A DNA stretch of 64,000 bases from Escherichia phage vB_EcoM_DalCa: the sequence record NC_054908.1, one strand, 5' to 3'. The first letter of the stretch is position 1. Every line of letters starts with the position of its first letter. Shown here one piece after another: positions 2,934-40,019 of this stretch. A program made the translations under genes and the position numbers. The notes below the pieces were generated by a model. It was not told the DNA's origin. It made no database searches and worked only from the letters and a program-made list of their open reading frames with translations.

Positions 2934-2951
2934 AAAGGGCCGAAGCCCTTT
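2934..2951 (-). terminator. GC-rich stem-loop (tetraloop) at 3' end of a-gt, putative terminator/RNA-stabilising hairpin
   Basis: AAAGGGC-CGAA-GCCCTTT palindrome overlapping the a-gt stop; U-rich flank. Confidence 0.45.
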
Positions 2952-4152
2952 ATTTTGTAATAATGTCAAACTGTTCTTTAAAACAGAAGCTTGAATCTTG
3001 GTGCTGATACAAAAATTCATATGCTTTTTCTCGCTCACGGTCATAAAGAGCTCGGTCAGATGACAGTTCTTTAATACGTTCAAATGTTGATTCCATATCA
3101 TTTTCATCAAACCAAATGATACCGCTATCATGCGAGGTCAAAGGAGTATTATCAACACGGAATTTTAAATTTTCGCCAGTAGATTTCCAAAATACCGGAA
3201 TTGTTCCACACGCGCCAAGCTCGAGATGAGTATATTCTAAAGAACGTTGTAGATATTTTTTATCCAACTTACTCAACTGATAACCAAAACCGGATTTACT
3301 CATACGTTCAAGCATTTCGCTATTTACATAACGGTCAAGAATTTGCGTTGGCAAATTAGGAGCAATTTTAATTTGGTCTACTTGATGAAGACGATAATAC
3401 TCGTATGGAATTCCTTTTTCTTTAATAGGAATGAACGCTGGAGAACGTTCCAGACCTTCCATAATAGTACTTAGTCCTGCAGGTTTAAGATGTTTTTCAT
3501 GAAAATCAAACATCTGATAAAAACCTTTCCATGTAGTCGTACGACCAATCCAACGGTTGATATTCATGTTAATTTCAGAAACATCTTTCCAGTAGGTTGA
3601 TCGAACCTTCGCAATATCCATCGGAGGCTGAAAGTTATATACTGTCGGTGCTTCTTCAATATCATCAAACAGAGAAACTGTTTCTGGATACCATTCTTTC
3701 ATCAGAACTTTATTAAAATCGCCATTATCAGAATGGCTAAAAATAACATCAGCTCGACGAACAGTTTCTTCTAATCCCAAATTTCGACGCAAAGAAAGAG
3801 AAGAATGGTCATGTTGATAAACTACAACACGAACCGAAGGTTTAATGTTATCAATAATTTTTTTATAGTTATTAATAGTGTCTTCTTCAACTGAAGTAAC
3901 AGGAACTGAATTGATAATTAGAATATCACAATCATTTACCAGCTTAAGTGTTTTATCGTATTCTTTTGCCAATAAAACCGGAATTGAAAATGATTTATAA
4001 TCATGTGCACAGTTACGAGTAAATGATTTATCTTTAGCATAAACCAAAGTTACTTCATGACCATTTTTAATAAACCAATCACGTTGCTCAAGAGAAAATT
4101 TAGTTACACCACAACCTTCAAGACCTCGAGCCATAAAAATACATACTTTCAT
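2950..4152 (-). CDS. a-gt: DNA alpha-glucosyltransferase (glucosylates hydroxymethylcytosine)
   Basis: 400 aa, same length and position (downstream of 47) as T4 a-gt; recognised N-terminus MKVCIFMARGLEGCGVTKF. Confidence 0.85.
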   Translation of the reverse strand: MKVCIFMARGLEGCGVTKFSLEQRDWFIKNGHEVTLVYAKDKSFTRNCAHDYKSFSIPVLLAKEYDKTLKLVNDCDILIINSVPVTSVEEDTINNYKKIIDNIKPSVRVVVYQHDHSSLSLRRNLGLEETVRRADVIFSHSDNGDFNKVLMKEWYPETVSLFDDIEEAPTVYNFQPPMDIAKVRSTYWKDVSEINMNINRWIGRTTTWKGFYQMFDFHEKHLKPAGLSTIMEGLERSPAFIPIKEKGIPYEYYRLHQVDQIKIAPNLPTQILDRYVNSEMLERMSKSGFGYQLSKLDKKYLQRSLEYTHLELGACGTIPVFWKSTGENLKFRVDNTPLTSHDSGIIWFDENDMESTFERIKELSSDRALYDREREKAYEFLYQHQDSSFCFKEQFDIITK

Positions 4153-30253: not shown

Positions 30254-30670
30254 TTAAATGTAAATATTTTTGCCGTAATACTTATACCAGTGTGGCTTCA
30301 TTAAAATTTTTTCATCGAGTCGTTGTTGACTCAACTTAATAGCTGATTTGCATGGATTATAATCATTTTTCCATTCTACTGGAATATCGCTGATGTCAGG
30401 AACTTCAGTATCTTTTATACTGAACCCGCGTTTTAAGCATTCCGTTATAATGTCCGATTGACGCTTTCGCAAAAATTCTAACTTATCGTAAAAGAAAGTA
30501 ACATGACCAGAACCTAAAATAAATTTAGAAGATATTTTAAAATCTTTAACGCGCTTACCGTTTGCCACATGCTTACGAACTATACCAAAAACACGCGGCA
30601 ATTCACGGTATTCTGCGATTAAATGTTGATCAGCAAGTTCAGATACTAAAGTCAAATTAATACGAGTCAT
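30254..30670 (-). CDS. denV: Endonuclease V (pyrimidine-dimer DNA glycosylase/AP lyase)
   Basis: 138 aa; recognised T4 endo V sequence [17 protein letters not shown]... Confidence 0.9.
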
Positions 30671-30695
30671 TTTATCCCTCCAAGTAACTGTGAAT

Positions 30696-30724
30696 ATACT
30701 ATCACAATTCTAGGAGAAAGTAAA
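30696..30724 (-). promoter_or_regulatory. T4 early-type promoter upstream of denV
   Basis: Minus -35 GTTTACT, 17-bp spacer, -10 TAGTAT; lies between e and denV. Confidence 0.5.
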
Positions 30725-30729
30725 CAACT

Positions 30730-31260
<531 letters not shown>

Positions 31261-34137: not shown

Positions 34138-34208
34138 AGTATTTCCTTAGGTTAATTGAGATTTAAAATCCGTAGGAGTATAATACTCTATCGTCAAATT
34201 ATAGGCTC

Positions 34209-34237
34209 ATAATATCTCAATCATGAGCCTGCGTAAA
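34209..34237 (-). promoter_or_regulatory. Candidate T4 early-type promoter upstream of 33544..34137
   Basis: Minus -35 GTTTACG, 17-bp spacer, -10 TATTAT. Confidence 0.4.
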
Positions 34238-34238
34238 C

Positions 34239-34502: not shown

Positions 34503-34535
34503 TTCATTCTCCAAGTTGTTTTCTGTATCAGTAGT

Positions 34536-34564
34536 TGATAGTTGTATAGTACCATGGAAGAACA
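34536..34564 (-). promoter_or_regulatory. T4 early-type promoter module upstream of 34239..34502
   Basis: TTGATAGTTGTATAGTACC...TGTAAACAGTTTTGTGAAAAAATTTTTAGGG on plus. Confidence 0.5.
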
Positions 34565-34731
34565 GAGATGTAAACAGTTTTGTGAAAAAATTTTTAGGGA
34601 ATTCTAGGGCAGGGATGGGCAATTAAAGGATAGGATAATATATTATAAAGGGTATAAACTAAATGATGCCTAGAGAGGTCCAGAAAGGCCTAGATACCAA
34701 AAAGCCCTATCATTTAGATAGGGATTTAAAA

Positions 34732-35295
34732 TTATTTACCTAGTTTACTTATTATAGCTTCTGCAGCAGCTTTTAGCTTAGATGCAGTGTTAATACGATT
34801 TTTAATTTCAGTATACGCATCGCCAAGAACATCAAGGCTATCAGAATAAACACTTACACTATTGCGTTCGCTATTTGAAATAGAACCTTTAGTTTTGCGG
34901 TCAAAATCGGTGTACACGTCTTGAAGATCGCGGGCTGCCTTCTTTGCATCATCCAATGCATCAAGAGCTTTATTCAAAGCATTAACGTATTTTTTAGTGT
35001 CGAACATATTCTTAGAAATTTTAACAGGTGCGCGTTCAGGAGTAGCTAACACAGATTTAGGAACCTGAGCGCCAGATGCCAATTTCTTAGAAATTTTGAA
35101 AAATGCTTTATTGAATTTATTTTCTTGACTCATTGTAAAAGAACTATTATCGATGTTGTACATTTCAATAGCTTTAGCTTTCCACTTAAGAAAATCGCCG
35201 CGGTCTTTTGGGTCCAATTGGAAGAATACTTTAGTAAGATCTGCTTCAGATGGTAATTTTGCTGCTTCGGTTAAAAATTCGGCATAGGTTTTCAT
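34732..35295 (-). CDS. Internal-protein-like capsid-targeted protein (IP family candidate)
   Basis: 187 aa; N-terminus MKTYAEFLTEA resembles the T4 internal-protein capsid-targeting sequence (MKTYQEFIAE) ending in an L-x-E prohead-protease-type site. Confidence 0.55.
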   Translation of the reverse strand: MKTYAEFLTEAAKLPSEADLTKVFFQLDPKDRGDFLKWKAKAIEMYNIDNSSFTMSQENKFNKAFFKISKKLASGAQVPKSVLATPERAPVKISKNMFDTKKYVNALNKALDALDDAKKAARDLQDVYTDFDRKTKGSISNSERNSVSVYSDSLDVLGDAYTEIKNRINTASKLKAAAEAIISKLGK

Positions 35296-35384
35296 TTAAA
35301 ATCCTTGAAATAATTTATCGGTTGGTTATTAATTATTTATTACTTTGTTACTATCCGTAACAGCGTTATCCGAGTGATTCAAAC

Positions 35385-35413
35385 TAAAAAGCCCCAACCT
35401 TTCGGTCGGGGCT
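35385..35413 (-). terminator. Intrinsic terminator (repeat copy 1) downstream of IP-like gene 35421..35894
   Basis: On minus strand AGCCCCGACC-GAAA-GGUUGGGGCU followed by UUUUU; identical to copy at 35942-35970. Confidence 0.6.
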
Positions 35414-35420
35414 AAGAATG

Positions 35421-35894
35421 TCATTTGATTTGTTTAGCAGACCAAATGCGGTCTTTAATAATTTTTTGGATGTCTTCAACATACTCAAGAGAGTGAACAT
35501 GTGGATTATCTTTGAAACTATAAGCACGGGCTAACTTTTGGCCTTCGGTTTTGATTACTAAAAGCTCTTTAAGGATAGCTTCATATTTAGCGATAATTCC
35601 TTTAACGATATTTTTTTCTTGTGCCGCTTTAGGATCTGCTTTAGGAGCAGGTTTACCCGAAGCCTTTGCAAAAGCAGCGCCAGTAGCAACTAAACTTTTC
35701 CAGGCCATACTAACTGCATTTCCCGTAAATCCTTCCGCTTTCATGTCGCGTGCAAACTGGAATCGCGATTCATCAGAAGCATCTTTATAGGAATATTTAC
35801 CCGCGGCAATGGCAGCTTTTGCAACAGCTTGAATTTCGGTGCTAGATGCTTCATTTAACACCGCTTCATTTAAAAATTGAGTATATGATTTCAT
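35421..35894 (-). CDS. Internal-protein-like capsid-targeted protein (IP family candidate)
   Basis: ORF 35421..36071 trimmed to ATG (MKSYTQFLNEA) preceded by AGGAAA; CTS-like N-terminus; TATAAATA late-promoter motif upstream; terminator hairpin downstream. Confidence 0.55.
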   Translation of the reverse strand: MKSYTQFLNEAVLNEASSTEIQAVAKAAIAAGKYSYKDASDESRFQFARDMKAEGFTGNAVSMAWKSLVATGAAFAKASGKPAPKADPKAAQEKNIVKGIIAKYEAILKELLVIKTEGQKLARAYSFKDNPHVHSLEYVEDIQKIIKDRIWSAKQIK

Positions 35895-35932
35895 CTTATT
35901 TCCTGTTTTAATTTGTAGATTTAATATACTAA

Positions 35933-35940
35933 TATTTATA
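35933..35940 (-). promoter_or_regulatory. T4-type late promoter motif upstream of internal-protein-like gene 35421..35894
   Basis: Plus strand TATTTATA (TATAAATA on minus) about 40 nt upstream of the MKSYTQF start. Confidence 0.5.
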
Positions 35941-35941
35941 C

Positions 35942-35970
35942 CAAAAAGCCCCAACCTTTCGGTCGGGGCT
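35942..35970 (-). terminator. Intrinsic terminator (repeat copy 2) at 3' end of tRNA/small-RNA transcription unit
   Basis: Same 29-nt hairpin plus U5 as copy 1. Confidence 0.6.
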
Positions 35971-36277
35971 AAGCCTTGCGGCAACCTTGTCGGGGTTCCA
36001 CCTGCTAAGGCAAGTGTTTGTACGAAACGCCGGGATTCGAACCCGGTTATTAAGTAGTTGACGCTACTCAATATTTTTAAAAGGCCATATCTCGACCATA
36101 TCCGAACGTTCCGTCAAAAACGCTACTCGGCTTACGGCAAAGATATTTCCTCGAATCGATAATTCGGTGCGCCGTTTCTGCTGTGATAGTAAAGAGCCAG
36201 AACACAGTAAAACTGTGGGAGGAAACTATACTCCAGGGAACATCAGTCCGACGACTTACCGGTAGCGACCCGGTTTC
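35971..36277 (-). ncRNA. Candidate small stable RNA(s), analogous to T4 RNA C/RNA D (species 1 and 2), including a tRNA-like T-arm
   Basis: About 300 nt with no ORF of 60 aa or more between the tRNA-region ORF and a strong terminator; perfect T-arm-like hairpin CCGGG-TTCGAAT-CCCGG near 36030-36046 without a full cloverleaf; exact RNA ends not determinable by eye. Confidence 0.3.
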
Positions 36278-36628
36278 TTAATATTCTTTTAAAGAATCAA
36301 TATATTCACGGCGTTTACGCCACAAATCAATTGCTTCATACGCGGATTCAGCATTTCGAATTAGCCTGCATTTATGTAAAGACTTATGATTTTGATATTG
36401 TGTAGATAACGGAATTGTATCTAAAAGGTCTTTACGATCAAAATATTCGTAACCATCTAAACCAAATGAACGATTTTTGAGAAATTGCCAATGACCATAT
36501 TCGTTTTCGACATAAACATAATCTGCATGCTGATAAAGCAAATTAATTACACGTTCAGAAATAACAGTATCATTATGATTAAAATAGAATGTTAAATCAT
36601 GAACTACTAAATAAACATTACCTTTCAT
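36278..36628 (-). CDS. Hypothetical protein within tRNA region
   Basis: 116-aa ORF immediately downstream of tRNA-Arg. Confidence 0.5.
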   Translation of the reverse strand: MKGNVYLVVHDLTFYFNHNDTVISERVINLLYQHADYVYVENEYGHWQFLKNRSFGLDGYEYFDRKDLLDTIPLSTQYQNHKSLHKCRLIRNAESAYEAIDLWRKRREYIDSLKEY

Positions 36629-36646
36629 ATTTTCCTCACTTATAAT

Positions 36647-36722
36647 TGGTCGAGGCAGTAGGGATCGAACCTACGACCTAGGACTTAGAAGGTCCTTGCT
36701 CTTCCTTCTGAGCTATGCCCCG
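36647..36722 (-). tRNA. tRNA-Arg (anticodon UCU), CCA encoded
   Basis: Manual fold of reverse complement: 7-bp acceptor stem, anticodon arm AGGAC-CUUCUAA-GUCCU, T-arm GTAGG-TTCGATC-CCTAC; 76 nt. Confidence 0.8.
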
Positions 36723-36726
36723 TAAT

Positions 36727-36802
36727 TGGGGTGACCGATGGGAGTCGAACCCATGACTACGAGAATCACAATCTCGAGTTCTACCAACTGAACTACGGCC
36801 AC
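36727..36802 (-). tRNA. tRNA-His (anticodon GUG), CCA encoded
   Basis: Manual fold: D-stem GTTC/GAAC, anticodon arm CGAGA-UUGUGAU-UCUCG, T-arm ATGGG-TTCGACT-CCCAT, discriminator C; not part of the 8-tRNA T4 set. Confidence 0.75.
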
Positions 36803-36916
36803 ATTAATACCTACTCCAACAATCAAGATGTCTTCACACGAAATTAAGAGAAGAGTGATCAGTTCAACCCCTATAATCGCGTCAAGTAGATATTAATGTG
36901 ACAGTTGTCACAAATT

Positions 36917-36991
36917 TGGCGGACGTGATAGGATTCGAACCTATAACCAATCGCTTAACAGGCGATCGCTCTGCCATTGAGCTACACATCC
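36917..36991 (-). tRNA. tRNA-Asn (anticodon GUU), CCA encoded
   Basis: Manual fold: anticodon arm ATCGC-CUGUUAA-GCGAT, T-arm with GGTTCGAATCC; not part of the T4 set. Confidence 0.75.
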
Positions 36992-36995
36992 AAAT

Positions 36996-37082
36996 TGGTG
37001 GGGAGTGGTGGAGTCGAACCACCCGAGTCGCAATGACAATGGATTTACAGTCCACACCGCTACCTCTACGGGATAACTCCCC
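36996..37082 (-). tRNA. tRNA-Tyr (anticodon GUA), class II long variable arm, CCA encoded
   Basis: Manual fold: acceptor GGGGAGT/ACTCCCC, anticodon loop CUGUAAA, long variable arm, T-arm GGTGG-TTCGACT-CCACC; 87 nt; not part of the T4 set. Confidence 0.7.
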
Positions 37083-37091
37083 AAATTAATT

Positions 37092-37166
37092 TGGTGGCCC
37101 TGGGTGGAATTGAACCACCATCTGGCGATTATGAGTCGCTTGCTTGAACCTTCCAGCTACAGGGCC
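37092..37166 (-). tRNA. tRNA with anticodon CAU (Met or lysidine-modified Ile), CCA encoded
   Basis: Manual fold: acceptor GGCCCTG/CAGGGCC, anticodon loop CUCAUAA, T-arm GGTGG-TTCAATT-CCACC; cannot separate Met from Ile(LAU) by eye. Confidence 0.65.
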
Positions 37167-37167
37167 T

Positions 37168-37243
37168 TGGTGCTGATTGACGGAATCGAACCGCCGACCT
37201 TCTCATTACAAGTGAGTTGCTCTACCTACTGAGCTAAATCAGC
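37168..37243 (-). tRNA. tRNA-Thr (anticodon UGU), CCA encoded
   Basis: Manual fold: acceptor GCTGATT/AATCAGC, anticodon loop CUUGUAA, T-loop TTCGATT. Confidence 0.75.
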
Positions 37244-37248
37244 AAAAC

Positions 37249-37338
37249 TGGCGGAGGCGATAGGATTTGAACCTATGAGTCGCCGGAGCGACTGCCGGTT
37301 TTCAAGACCGGTGCATTAAACCACTCTGCCACGCCTCC
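37249..37338 (-). tRNA. tRNA-Ser (anticodon UGA), class II, CCA encoded
   Basis: Manual fold: acceptor GGAGGCG/CGCCTCC, anticodon arm CCGGT-CUUGAAA-ACCGG, long variable arm; 90 nt. Confidence 0.8.
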
Positions 37339-37340
37339 AG

Positions 37341-37414
37341 TCTCCGTGGCAGGATTTGAACCTACGACATTCTACTCCCAAAGCAGACGCTCTACCAAAC
37401 TGAGCTACACGGAG
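37341..37414 (-). tRNA. tRNA-Pro (anticodon UGG), CCA not encoded
   Basis: Manual fold: acceptor CTCCGTG/CACGGAG, anticodon loop UUUGGGA, T-loop TTCAAAT; 3' end abuts tRNA-Ser 5' end, consistent with the T4-type Pro-Ser dimeric precursor. Confidence 0.75.
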
Positions 37415-37424
37415 TAAATTAAAT

Positions 37425-37498
<74 letters not shown>

Positions 37499-37503
37499 AA
37501 ATT

Positions 37504-37590
37504 TGGTGCGAGAAGTGGGACTCGAACCCACAAGGAAATCATTCCGCAGCATTTTAAGTGCTGTGCCTTTACCAATTTGGCCATTCTCGC
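37504..37590 (-). tRNA. tRNA-Leu (anticodon UAA), class II, CCA encoded
   Basis: Manual fold: acceptor GCGAGAA/TTCTCGC, anticodon arm CAGCA-CUUAAAA-UGCUG, long variable arm; 87 nt. Confidence 0.8.
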
Positions 37591-37591
37591 G

Positions 37592-37664
37592 CTGGGAATA
37601 AAGGACTCGAACCTTTGCATCCTGGAATCAAAATCCAGTGCCTTACCAACTTGGCTAATTCCCA
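37592..37664 (-). tRNA. tRNA-Gln (anticodon UUG), CCA not encoded
   Basis: Manual fold: acceptor TGGGAAT/ATTCCCA (U1-A72), anticodon arm CTGGA-UUUUGAU-TCCAG, T-arm AAAGG-TTCGAGT-CCTTT; 3' end abuts tRNA-Leu as in the T4 Gln-Leu dimeric precursor. Confidence 0.75.
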
Positions 37665-37761
37665 ATTATTAACAAAGGCTCTTAAGCAAGAACCCTTGAT
37701 GATAGAGGGTATTAATCAGTGCGATATGAGTTAATAATAACAAATAATTCTTAAAGCATAT

Positions 37762-38049
37762 TTACCATTTATAATAATACATATTTACGATGCATTCAAG
37801 ACCCAAAGGATTCTTGAAAATATCATATTCAAGAGGACCTTTTTCTGTTTCAATAAAGAAATCAAAATTTACTGTATTAAATTTACGTTCTTCCTTCACT
37901 AATTTAACTTGAGAAGATGAACGGTCAATGTAAACCTTTTCAACTTCAAAACATGTTAAAATGCCATAATCATCAATCAAAGCTTTAGCCGCGTCTTGAT
38001 CATATTTATATCCATTTTCAATGGATGATACTTTCGCATAAAGAATCAT
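37762..38049 (-). CDS. Hypothetical protein
   Basis: 95-aa ORF upstream of the tRNA cluster. Confidence 0.5.
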   Translation of the reverse strand: MILYAKVSSIENGYKYDQDAAKALIDDYGILTCFEVEKVYIDRSSSQVKLVKEERKFNTVNFDFFIETEKGPLEYDIFKNPLGLECIVNMYYYKW

Positions 38050-38051
38050 TA

Positions 38052-38450
38052 TCAGCCTTCATCAACAATAGTGTGAGTATTAGCATTTACGATTTGCCAC
38101 CAATCAAAGCGATTAGAATCCATCGGTTTGTTTTCATTTTCTTTGATAATGTCACGGAGTTCATCTTCAGAGAATGCTTTAGCAATTAAATCGGTATACC
38201 CACCACGGGGATAATAATTATCACCTGCAAACAAAAGGAAATTTACCTTCCCGGAAGCAACATATGCTTCCTTAGGATACTTGTTTCCTGCGTGGTCAAC
38301 CACTTCAATATAACGGTAAGGAATATCGGTTCTTTCAACCCATTGCCATGCCGCCGCAGGGGAATCGAAAGCATCTACACCTAAACGATTATCTTCATCT
38401 TTAGACGGATTATTTTCGTAATCCGCATATACATAATATTCAACGTTCAT
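38052..38450 (-). CDS. Hypothetical acidic protein
   Basis: 132-aa ORF. Confidence 0.5.
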   Translation of the reverse strand: MNVEYYVYADYENNPSKDEDNRLGVDAFDSPAAAWQWVERTDIPYRYIEVVDHAGNKYPKEAYVASGKVNFLLFAGDNYYPRGGYTDLIAKAFSEDELRDIIKENENKPMDSNRFDWWQIVNANTHTIVDEG

Positions 38451-38635
38451 TATTCACCTTTAGAAATTTTATCCATAACAATAGCAATTAAACCAATTAA
38501 AAATGCTACTACAAGTGAAAAAACATTTTCTGCCGTAGTCAATAATCCGCATATAAATCCAACAAACATTGAAAAACTGAAAGCGGAAGCAGAAATTGCA
38601 ATAGCAACATTTCGAATTAATTCACAACGTTTCAT
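38450..38635 (-). CDS. Hypothetical small membrane protein
   Basis: 61 aa, two hydrophobic helices; early-type promoter upstream. Confidence 0.45.
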   Translation of the reverse strand: MKRCELIRNVAIAISASAFSFSMFVGFICGLLTTAENVFSLVVAFLIGLIAIVMDKISKGE

Positions 38636-38663
38636 TTTATTCTCCTCAGTAGTAGATAGGGTA

Positions 38664-38692
38664 ATAGTATCACTACCCTATCTAAAAGTAAA
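38664..38692 (-). promoter_or_regulatory. T4 early-type promoter module upstream of 38450..38635
   Basis: GATAGGGTAATAGTATCAC...AGTAAAC on plus; 17-bp spacing. Confidence 0.5.
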
Positions 38693-38693
38693 C

Positions 38694-38939
38694 TTATTTT
38701 TTACGAAAAATTGATTTATTTTCTGCTGCCCATTTTTCAATAACTGCAGCAGGACCAGTAACAACAATTTTATCACCGTAATCTTCTGCGGCGAGTTGAC
38801 CGAAATTATCTAATGCATCACGAAGAACTCCATGAGGCATTTCACCCATTTTATCTTTCTTGCCAGTGTAAATAAACTCAACTTTTACATCAGCAGTTTC
38901 AGCAATAAATTCTTGGTAAGTTTTCATTTTGATTTCCAT
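38694..38939 (-). CDS. Internal-protein-like capsid-targeted protein (IP family candidate)
   Basis: 81-aa ORF; from its fifth codon reads MKTYQEFIAETA, matching the T4 IP capsid-targeting sequence; true start may be that internal ATG. Confidence 0.55.
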   Translation of the reverse strand: MEIKMKTYQEFIAETADVKVEFIYTGKKDKMGEMPHGVLRDALDNFGQLAAEDYGDKIVVTGPAAVIEKWAAENKSIFRKK

Positions 38940-38961
38940 TTGGTTTTGTTTTGATAGGGTA

Positions 38962-38990
38962 ATAGTATCACAACTAAAACCCTATGTAAA
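38962..38990 (-). promoter_or_regulatory. T4 early-type promoter module upstream of IP-like gene 38694..38939
   Basis: TTGATAGGGTAATAGTATCAC...TGTAAACAACTTTGTGAAATTATTTTA on plus. Confidence 0.55.
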
Positions 38991-39003
38991 CAACTTTGTG
39001 AAA

Positions 39004-39261
39004 TTATTTTAAATCTTCTAATCGTTTCTTCATCTTAGAACCATTTTTAGCAATTTCTCCTGCATCGGAGCATAATGCTAAAAGTGCTTTAACTTTAGTT
39101 TGGTCTCCTTTAAAAGATGAAGGATCGACCGCAGCAGCAAGTTCTTTAATACGAGAGAAAAGACGCTCAGCTTCAGCTAAAGCCATTCCAAGCTTTACTT
39201 CCATACCGTGGGAAGATTCAGTGATAGTAGTTTTTGTAGCAAACTCTTTGAAAGTTTTCAT
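39004..39261 (-). CDS. Internal-protein-like capsid-targeted protein (IP family candidate)
   Basis: 85 aa; N-terminus MKTFKEFATKTTITE resembles CTS with L/I-x-E site. Confidence 0.5.
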   Translation of the reverse strand: MKTFKEFATKTTITESSHGMEVKLGMALAEAERLFSRIKELAAAVDPSSFKGDQTKVKALLALCSDAGEIAKNGSKMKKRLEDLK

Positions 39262-39291
39262 TTTTATTTTCCTAATTAATTTTGATGAGGT

Positions 39292-39320
39292 AATAGTATC
39301 ACTACCTCATCAGTATGTAA
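39292..39320 (-). promoter_or_regulatory. T4 early-type promoter module upstream of IP-like gene 39004..39261
   Basis: Near-identical copy of the module at 38962-38990. Confidence 0.55.
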
Positions 39321-39334
39321 ACAACTTTGTGAAA

Positions 39335-40019
<685 letters not shown>

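Follow-up and report, generated by a model that had tools for sequence, protein, structure and literature searches.

The internal proteins (IPs) of T-even phages have recently been recognised to decide whether these phages infect wild Escherichia coli with type IV restriction enzymes (PMC12373910). Each of the T4 proteins Ip1, Ip2 and Ip3 inhibits one GmrSD type IV enzyme, without cross-protection (Silas 2025, PMC12373910), and a target is known for only three of the more than 10 named IPs. Injected IPs act before any phage gene expression, and the concept itself, which dates from 1994-2007, is left unchanged by the results described here. Work by Bair from 2007 is said to stand alongside the 2025 study of Silas et al. 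as a source for T4 internal proteins as GmrSD inhibitors. Reportedly, the T-even ip loci were surveyed by Repoila, Tetart, Bouet and Krisch in the EMBO Journal in 1994, including Ip4-Ip9 and further internal proteins. Here, we compare these systems with four small genes in a stretch of 64,000 nucleotides of Escherichia phage vB_EcoM_DalCa (NC_054908.1), which as a whole is called the window. We estimate a probability of roughly 70% that the products of all four are internal head proteins of the T4 type, i.e., proteins with an N-terminal capsid-targeting sequence (CTS). The four open reading frames (ORFs), with the lengths of their products in amino acids (aa), their leaders and the expectation values (E) of their PHROG matches, are:

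34732..35295, minus strand: 187-aa CTS gene of the RB14ORF136 family, leader MKTYAEFLTE, match to phrog_2280 (E 2e-53)
35421..35894, minus strand: 157-aa CTS gene of the RB32ORF133c / fD1 g140 family, leader MKSYTQFLNE, match to phrog_2280 (E 2e-60)
38694..38927, minus strand: ip6, encoding the 77-aa internal protein Ip6, leader MKTYQEFIAE, match to phrog_8111 'internal virion protein' (E 1e-52)
39004..39261, minus strand: ip5, encoding the 85-aa internal protein Ip5, leader MKTFKEFATKTTITE of the IPI type, match to phrog_3499 'internal head protein' (E 1e-49)

An earlier note on this DNA had described four ORFs with CTS-like N-termini. All of them exist on the minus strand, with one correction: the third starts at 38927 and not at 38939, that is, 12 nt further in. 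The ORF listed up to 38939 has four extra codons (MEIK), related genomes annotate the ATG at 38927, and a GGA is present 5-9 nt upstream of this ATG. A scan of the six-frame translation of the whole 64 kb for the motif MK[ST][YF].[EQ]F yielded exactly four matches, all of them at the starts of the four ORFs, compared to a mean of 0.01 and a maximum of 1 in 200 shuffled controls, i.e., 400-fold above chance. It could be argued that the four ORFs are not genes or that their N-termini resemble a CTS by chance, and their small size, though nothing else, speaks for this. The motif count, the full-length PHROG matches (E<=1e-49), the conservation of the genes in 163-510 phage genomes, and the peptides found for a homolog in phage fD1 already exclude it for all practical purposes.

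The leaders can be compared residue by residue with those of T4, where, as read from the genome, IPII and IPIII start with MKTYQEFIAE and IPI with MKTFKEFTSTTTPVSTITE. Mutational work on T4 IPIII by Mullaney and Black, to the extent that it is summarised in the pertinent part of PMC9026906, has assigned targeting to residues 4 (aromatic) and 7 (Phe) and processing to residues 8 (Leu or Ile) and 10 (Glu), and the same part states that the first ten residues suffice for packaging. The targeting residues are Y4 and F7 in the 187-aa protein, the 157-aa protein and Ip6, and F4 and F7 in Ip5. Leu or Ile at position 8 and Glu at position 10 are present in the former three, while Ip5 instead has the longer IPI-type leader that ends with I-T-E. 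As its leader-closing (L/I)-x-E site the 187-aa protein has L-T-E10. The 157-aa protein has two such sites, L-N-E10 and L-N-E15 (MKSYTQFLNE-AVLNE), and the sites of the other two are I-A-E10 in Ip6 and I-T-E15 in Ip5, the last of them like I-T-E19 of T4 IPI. In the 187-aa protein the leader-closing site is the sole (L/I)xE, as it is in T4 IPI, IPII and IPIII. The suspected relationship to the T4 CTS is thus borne out at the positions for targeting as well as for cleavage.

Behind the leaders, the mature parts of the four proteins are unrelated to one another and to the T4 IPs in BLASTP comparisons, and the lack of mutual similarity of mature parts is a known hallmark of IPs (PMC12373910). In BLASTP and tblastn comparisons with IPI*, Ip2 and Ip3 no sequence similarity of the four proteins was found beyond the leader. 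Since the known inhibitors Ip1, Ip2 and Ip3 are themselves mutually unrelated, this lack of similarity is no argument against a comparable function.

Two of the four genes are already known (1994), and half of the finding is therefore not new. Ip5 is identical at 85/85 positions to Ip5 of RB15 (CAA84462, GenBank Z35082) and to the T6 protein, and 98.8% identical to that of T2. Its gene is located directly after 57B, the place of ipI in T4, and the likeness of Ip5 to T4 IPI in BLASTP is confined to the leader. Ip6 is identical to the T6 protein at 76/77 positions, and the gene is annotated as ip6 or ipVI in fFiEco06, GiZh and VR7. Its leader is exactly that of T4 IPII and IPIII, and beyond the leader BLASTP gave no match to T4 IPII. 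The whole interval from 57B to trna.4 (38636-39334) has 99.1% DNA identity to T6. The mature proteins are predicted to comprise 70 aa with 7.5 kDa and an isoelectric point (pI) of 9.2 for Ip5, and 67 aa with a pI of 6.5 for Ip6. Packaging and processing of Ip5 and Ip6 can be expected with considerable confidence.

The other two genes, encoding the 157-aa and the 187-aa proteins, are located between e.8 and rnaC, where they form a 1.2-kb insertion relative to T4. The T4 interval from e.8 to tRNA-Arg comprises 626 bp and holds rnaC and rnaD; its positions 1-231 align with 34503-34723 of the window and its positions 202-545 with 35938-36278. The insertion breakpoint is the terminator hairpin of rnaC, which is present three times, and each of the two genes is preceded by a late or near-late promoter:

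35947..35970, minus strand: intrinsic terminator at the 3' end of rnaC, hairpin AGCCCCGACCGAAAGGTTGGGGCT-TTTT, first copy
35933..35940, minus strand: T4-type late promoter TATAAATA, located upstream of the 157-aa gene at a distance of 46 nt
35390..35413, minus strand: the same terminator, second copy, which separates the 157-aa gene from the 187-aa gene
35334..35341, minus strand: near-consensus late promoter AATAAATA (7 of 8 positions), upstream of the 187-aa gene
34705..34723, minus strand: diverged terminator after the 187-aa gene, where homology to T4 resumes

The late promoter TATAAATA is also found 35-46 nt upstream in RB32, IME08, KMB19, K65 and VR20, and the variant AATAAATA in G4498, ST2 and O157 typing phage 3 (TP3). 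The five genomes with TATAAATA represent four other genera plus a Klebsiella phage. The 157-aa protein, the mature form of which would have 142-147 aa, about 15.5 kDa and a pI of 9.6, has matches in 510 phage records, and the 187-aa protein in 163; among the matches listed, all are labelled hypothetical or 'phage protein'. The source names of the 90% clusters are likewise all hypothetical or uncharacterized, apart from one spurious JGI label. In the annotation of RB32 the copy of the 157-aa gene is described as 'flanked by 34 bp imperfect direct repeat', yet the protein is called hypothetical. Among 769 records that match the e.8-rnaC interval, about 126 carry both genes, others carry the 157-aa gene alone or the 187-aa gene alone, and neither gene is present in T4 and T6.

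Both proteins match PHROG 2280, a family of unknown function, across nearly the whole profile. By BLASTP they share the leader alone, and no significance was reached in a first hhalign comparison, for which the alignments were shallow. With the 187-aa protein as query, an exhaustive HMMER search yielded a relative at 31% identity, which in turn matched 349 phage records in tblastn. After distant homologs (Karamvirus, Dhakavirus, a Klebsiella phage) had been added, hhalign aligned the 187-aa and 157-aa families over 148 columns with a probability of 96.5% and an E of 7e-10. Judged from these profiles, both genes belong to one widespread family, in which they are distantly related paralogs. Homologs are located between tRNA-Arg/rnaC and e.8 in Mosigvirus (TP3) and in Dhakavirus (IME08), and an RNA-like region and a terminator likewise precede the Karamvirus and Klebsiella homologs, the records of which are without tRNA or e.8 labels. 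Same-locus homologs are present in at least three further genera.

The conservation of the leader in these distant relatives has a bearing on the question whether it is functional. In the 157-aa and 187-aa proteins, the CTS-like N-termini might be mere passengers of recombination, carried along in a 5' cassette with the ribosome-binding site and the first codons, in which case the proteins would be cytoplasmic and would not be packaged. Such a cassette is conceivable, because the DNA of leader and ribosome-binding site is a repeat common to three of the four genes, and modules of T-even genomes are shuffled at promoter/terminator cassettes, as the relevant sections of PMC2839356 and PMC4122927 have it. 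However, in homologs of the 187-aa protein with 24-30% identity (Karamvirus, Dhakavirus, Klebsiella phage), the DNA of which is no longer similar, the leader with its residues 4, 7, 8 and 10 is kept, and so is the (L/I)xE at its end, which is found in nearly every family member and is replaced by L-F-E in only one of these homologs. The leaders read MITFNEFLNE-SEMINE, MLNFKEFIAE-SDSDMITE, MKTYNEFLNE-SVLTE and MKFKDFLTE-EELFE, and in the 187-aa superfamily the identity is 56% in the leader versus 31% in the rest. Members of the 157-aa family from Yersinia and Klebsiella phages have CTS-like leaders, too (MLEYSEFLKE, MKFKEFLAE). The late promoters upstream of both genes and the detection of the fD1 homolog in virions (see below) also argue against passengers. 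Because ten CTS residues suffice for packaging in T4, any expressed protein that carries them should be packaged. Taken together, a passenger role of the leaders is very improbable.

Virion data exist for phage fD1, in which the protein g140 is identical to the 157-aa protein at 154/157 positions (98%). It was found to be particle-associated with a strict threshold in liquid chromatography-tandem mass spectrometry (LC-MS/MS) of virions (published proteome, PXD026812), as were Ip4 (g129) and IPI (g146) of the same phage. The detection of g140 in this LC-MS/MS data set, in which N-termini were not mapped, offers weak support for the packaging of the 157-aa family.

In the favoured reading, that the four genes encode packaged, processed and injected IPs, the N-terminal 10-15 residues (the CTS) would bind to the scaffolding core, and the proteins would thereby become part of the prohead. 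Then gp21, the prohead protease, would cut after the Glu of (L/I)-x-E and free the mature proteins inside the head; its gene 21 is located outside the window and is annotated in Paracelsus, a close relative, as bas36_0008. The predicted cuts are after E10 in the 187-aa protein and Ip6, after E10 and/or E15 in the 157-aa protein, and after E15 in Ip5. The mature 187-aa protein would thus start with AAKLPSEADLTK. For fD1 g140, the residues are AVLNEASSTEIQAVAK from A11 and ASSTEIQAVAK from A16. The 157-aa protein is quite likely to be packaged and processed, and with somewhat less assurance the same is to be expected of the 187-aa protein.

The mature proteins, which are small and, except for Ip6, basic, would be injected together with the DNA. 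In the cell they might neutralise a first-line defence before phage gene expression, by analogy with T4 Ip1, Ip2 and Ip3, and the best candidate target would be a nuclease of the GmrSD-family of type IV enzymes that cuts DNA with glucosylated hydroxymethylcytosine (glucosyl-hmC). In this respect one further gene of the window is relevant:

2950..4152, minus strand: hmC alpha-glucosyltransferase (Pfam AGT PF11440, E 8e-237)

In Paracelsus, which is 99.9% identical, a beta-alpha-glucosyltransferase of the T2/T6 type and a dCMP hydroxymethylase are annotated. The phage DNA should therefore contain glucosyl-hmC, the substrate of GmrSD-type restriction, and with the glucosyltransferases of the window and its relative the same class of enemy is relevant as for T4. 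For each of the four proteins we put an anti-defence effector function at slightly less than even odds. The label of candidate injected anti-restriction effectors, under which the earlier note had placed them, fits current knowledge, the role being assigned to these four proteins by analogy.

Several points weigh against the favoured reading. The fD1 proteome is unspecific, as it comprises 113/277 phage proteins together with 672 proteins of the host, and DenV, lysozyme and NudE are among those listed. Further (L/I)xE sites are present inside the 157-aa protein (L-K-E at residue 110) and inside Ip5 (two sites), and the late promoter of the 187-aa gene matches the consensus at only 7/8 positions. 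Packaging, cleavage and injection in this particular phage are deduced from sequence and literature. With respect to function, T2 and T6, which have Ip5, and in the case of T6 also Ip6, are still restricted by GmrSD-ECOR17 and GmrSD-ECOR21, and ten further ip genes, the identities of which are not given, did not inhibit any of five more GmrSD variants (PMC12373910). The GmrSD hypothesis is therefore without positive support beyond Ip1-3. In addition, PHROG 2280 is syntenic in several genera and thus looks more like a semi-conserved head component than like an anti-defence gene with a fast turnover.

The last point leads to the question whether PHROG 2280 proteins are packaged but act mainly as head components, with an IPIII-like role in head assembly or DNA condensation and as basic bulk where IPII and IPIII are lacking. 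The predicted mature 187-aa protein is very similar to mature IPIII of T4 (IPIII*) in its bulk properties (177 versus 183 aa, 19.6 versus 20.4 kDa, pI 9.5 versus 9.65, Lys+Arg/Asp+Glu 32/23 versus 33/23), and T4 IPIII mutants exhibit slower head assembly and a burst of about 40% of normal, according to the account that one part of PMC9026906 gives. Also in its favour are the single syntenic locus that the family occupies, together with a late promoter, in at least six genera, and the predicted structures. AlphaFold2 modelled the 157-aa protein with moderate confidence (predicted local distance difference test, pLDDT, 75) and the 187-aa protein with poor confidence (pLDDT 60), and both models follow one plan, in which a leader helix and a small helical domain are connected by a low-confidence linker with many Pro, Ala and Lys residues to a long helical hairpin. 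This plan is neither an enzyme-like fold nor a known inhibitor fold. In a Foldseek search of PDB and BFVD the 157-aa model retrieved only itself and noise, and for all four proteins nothing was above threshold in Pfam and NCBIfam and phmmer found no related solved structure among the PDB sequences. The function of PHROG 2280 is thus not readable from the predicted fold. However, the family is lacking in T4, T2 and T6, and T6 has only Ip5 and Ip6, which means that PHROG 2280 is dispensable. Moreover, near-identical Tequatroviruses contain 0, 1 or 2 copies, which is typical of accessory genes. T4 IPIII is itself a GmrSD inhibitor (PMC12373910), and head and anti-defence roles are therefore compatible. 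In summary, a mainly structural role is a reasonable alternative, although rather unlikely. The idea that the 187-aa protein is a diverged IPIII, to which size and charge might point, was rejected because the BLASTP similarity is in the leader alone.

The four genes are part of an IP repertoire that differs considerably from that of T4. In the T4 genome ipII and ipIII are located between denV and e, which are 1147 bp apart, while the distance in the window, where denV is found at 30254-30670 and e at 30730-31224, is 59 bp. It had been given as about 60 bp, and the inferred reshuffling of the IP complement holds: the denV/e site is empty, the ipI locus is T6-like, and two genes are present at a locus that is empty in T4.

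30671..30729, minus strand: junction of e and denV, 59 bp, with one early-type promoter; the classical ipII/ipIII locus is empty

A tblastn search (E<=0.01) did not reveal a match to T4 IPI, IPII, IPIII, e.7 or SegB anywhere in the window. ORFs with a CTS were scanned in the retrieved loci of five phages and of the window, with the following result:

T4: IPII and IPIII at denV/e; none at e.8-rnaC; IPI at 57B-trna.4
T2: Ip4 at denV/e; none at e.8-rnaC; Ip5 and Ip7 at 57B-trna.4
T6: none at denV/e; none at e.8-rnaC; Ip5 and Ip6 at 57B-trna.4
RB32: Ip4 at denV/e; the 157-aa protein at e.8-rnaC; Ip5, Ip9 and Ip7 at 57B-trna.4
fD1: Ip4 at denV/e; the 157-aa protein at e.8-rnaC; IPI at 57B-trna.4
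Window: none at denV/e; the 157-aa and 187-aa proteins at e.8-rnaC; Ip5 and Ip6 at 57B-trna.4

That ipII/ipIII and the PHROG 2280 genes are mutual substitutes was considered and rejected, because T2 and T6 are devoid of both and there is hence no strict complementarity. Ip4 (157 aa, MKTYQEFITE...) is encoded between vs.8 and denV in fD1 and beside e in RB32 and T2, for which no denV is annotated in the stretches retrieved. Its location on different sides of denV in different phages implies that the slots which make up the 'denV/e' ip locus are themselves movable.

The paper that assigned targets to Ip2 and Ip3 refers to 'the two Ip loci' (PMC12373910). The genes ip5 and ip6 lie inside the recognised IP loci, i.e., 57B-trna.4 and the surroundings of denV/e, and the 157-aa and 187-aa genes outside of them, between e.8 and rnaC. 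For IP genes, location is a family habit rather than something that function requires. The e.8-rnaC family is an unannotated family of predicted late-expressed proteins with a CTS, at a locus outside the ip loci recognised in the literature examined, and it is a modest addition. A more far-reaching possibility, which we regard as doubtful, is that PHROG 2280 marks a third IP locus, from rnaC/tRNA-Arg to e.8, which is served by a late promoter in many genera of the Tevenvirinae, and the abundant, injected products of which disarm a defence with which no IP has so far been connected. If so, the locus would have been missed because T4, T2 and T6 do not have it. The target could then be one of those GmrSD clusters for which no inhibitor was found by Silas et al., or another defence that acts on DNA entry, and the known set of 'first-strike' effectors of phages would be enlarged. 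In VR20 (Gaprivervirus), a CTS-like ORF of 127 aa, MLTYAEFLNRNTITE-SVLTE, is located just downstream of tRNA-Arg, in the place that corresponds to the e.8-rnaC locus of the window, and has a late promoter; e.8 is not labelled in this genome, and by eye the mature part looks unlike PHROG 2280. This ORF points to an exchange of cargo behind a constant leader at the third locus, as at the others. In practical terms, the 'hypothetical' genes with a packaging signal that were found in 163 and 510 records, together with the wider superfamily from several genera, are new candidates to be assayed against the published GmrSD panel, and the annotation of hundreds of genomes of therapeutic phages would be corrected.

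The 57B-trna.4 locus is characterised by repeated early promoters. One early sigma-70 promoter with an extended -10 region, which overlaps a hairpin, recurs upstream of each of the genes ip5, ip6 and trna.4:

39293..39321, minus strand: early-type sigma-70 promoter (TTTACA-17-TACTAT, TG) in a cassette of promoter and stem-loop, upstream of ip5
38962..38990, minus strand: second copy of the early promoter cassette, upstream of ip6

Copies of this promoter are found in the window at 39280-39350, 38949-39019, 38651-38721, 34546-34574 and 30696-30731, several of them with an overlapping hairpin, and they lie upstream of ip5, ip6, trna.4, e.8 and denV, respectively.

The window belongs to a Tequatrovirus, and its identity to phage Paracelsus (Bas36) is 99.9%. 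Across the 6 kb that surround the four ORFs, there is 99.8-99.9% identity to Escherichia phages Paracelsus/Bas36, U115, HP3, YUEEL01 and many other Tequatrovirus genomes. The gene order is T4-like and all on the minus strand, with denV, e, nudE, e.2-e.8, small RNAs, the tRNA cluster, trna.2-.4, the ip locus, 57B, 57A and gene 1, and every one of the flanking T4 proteins was recovered in the window by tblastn at 64-100% identity. T4 e.7, which is located between e.6 and e.8, is absent (34138-34238), and of its region in T4 only the final 39 bp align.

Upstream of the two PHROG 2280 genes, homologs of two small stable RNAs of T4 are present on the minus strand, rnaC at 36021-36159 with 99% identity and rnaD at 36166-36278 with 79% identity. 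In the records of related genomes these are left unannotated or short ORFs are placed across them, and an Rfam scan of 34-40 kb detected tRNAs only and no family for the two homologs. Between the rnaD-like RNA and tRNA-Arg is an ORF of 116 aa (36278-36628, minus strand; phrog_3355, unknown function), the stop codon of which adjoins the end of the rnaD-like segment. T4 has no gene there, while the ORF is present in T2, ST2 and G4498. The tRNA region (36647-37664) comprises 11 tRNA genes versus eight in T4, the additional ones being His, Asn and Tyr, and the T4 homing endonuclease gene segB is absent from it. The tRNA called Met(CAT) by ARAGORN is tRNA-Ile in T4 and in the annotation of Paracelsus, and the 114 bp between tRNA-His and tRNA-Asn (36803-36916) are without a tRNA call.

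A CTS-like leader was also noticed in the gp61.1 homolog beside the primase gene, a 54-aa protein encoded outside the window, in Paracelsus (91627-91791, minus strand), that starts with MKTYKEFIKE and thus has an I-K-E site. The gp61.1 family has 1227 phage records, including T4-like phages of Acinetobacter and Aeromonas; among the matches listed, nearly all are labelled hypothetical or gp61.1, and two overlap a 'major capsid protein' label. Possibly this is a peptide that is conserved and packaged, but the likeness of its leader to a CTS may also be coincidental.

The closest described systems can now be compared with the four genes. With IPI, IPII and IPIII of T4 the window proteins share the CTS, from which the larger two differ at 3-4/10 positions while keeping residues 4, 7, 8 and 10, the (L/I)-x-E site, the small and mostly basic form predicted for the mature proteins, the glucosyl-hmC DNA expected for the phage, and the location of the genes in variable regions beside promoter or terminator cassettes. 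In contrast, the mature parts have no detectable similarity to IPI*, IPII* and IPIII*, and the two larger genes occupy a locus that is empty in T4. With respect to the set Ip4-Ip9, two ORFs of the window are identified as Ip5 and Ip6, in the order 57B-ip5-ip6-trna.4 that is also the order of T6, whereas the 157-aa and 187-aa proteins are not named IPs in the records examined, including that of RB32, in which Ip4, Ip5, Ip7 and Ip9 are labelled. The copies of promoter and hairpin at ip5, ip6 and trna.4 and the terminator copies that bound the larger genes resemble, by their sequence pattern, the promoter-early stem-loop (PeSL) and terminator cassettes that, in the sections concerned, have been described as vehicles of modular shuffling in T4-type genomes (Arbiol/Comeau/Krisch, PMC2839356, PMC4122927). 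The larger genes share a match over the full length, the locus and the late promoter with the PHROG 2280 members RB32ORF133c, RB14ORF136, fD1 g140 and IME08 orf129. Unlike the genomes examined, which mostly contain one copy (RB32, fD1, IME08) or none (T4, T2, T6), the window contains two divergent paralogs in tandem.

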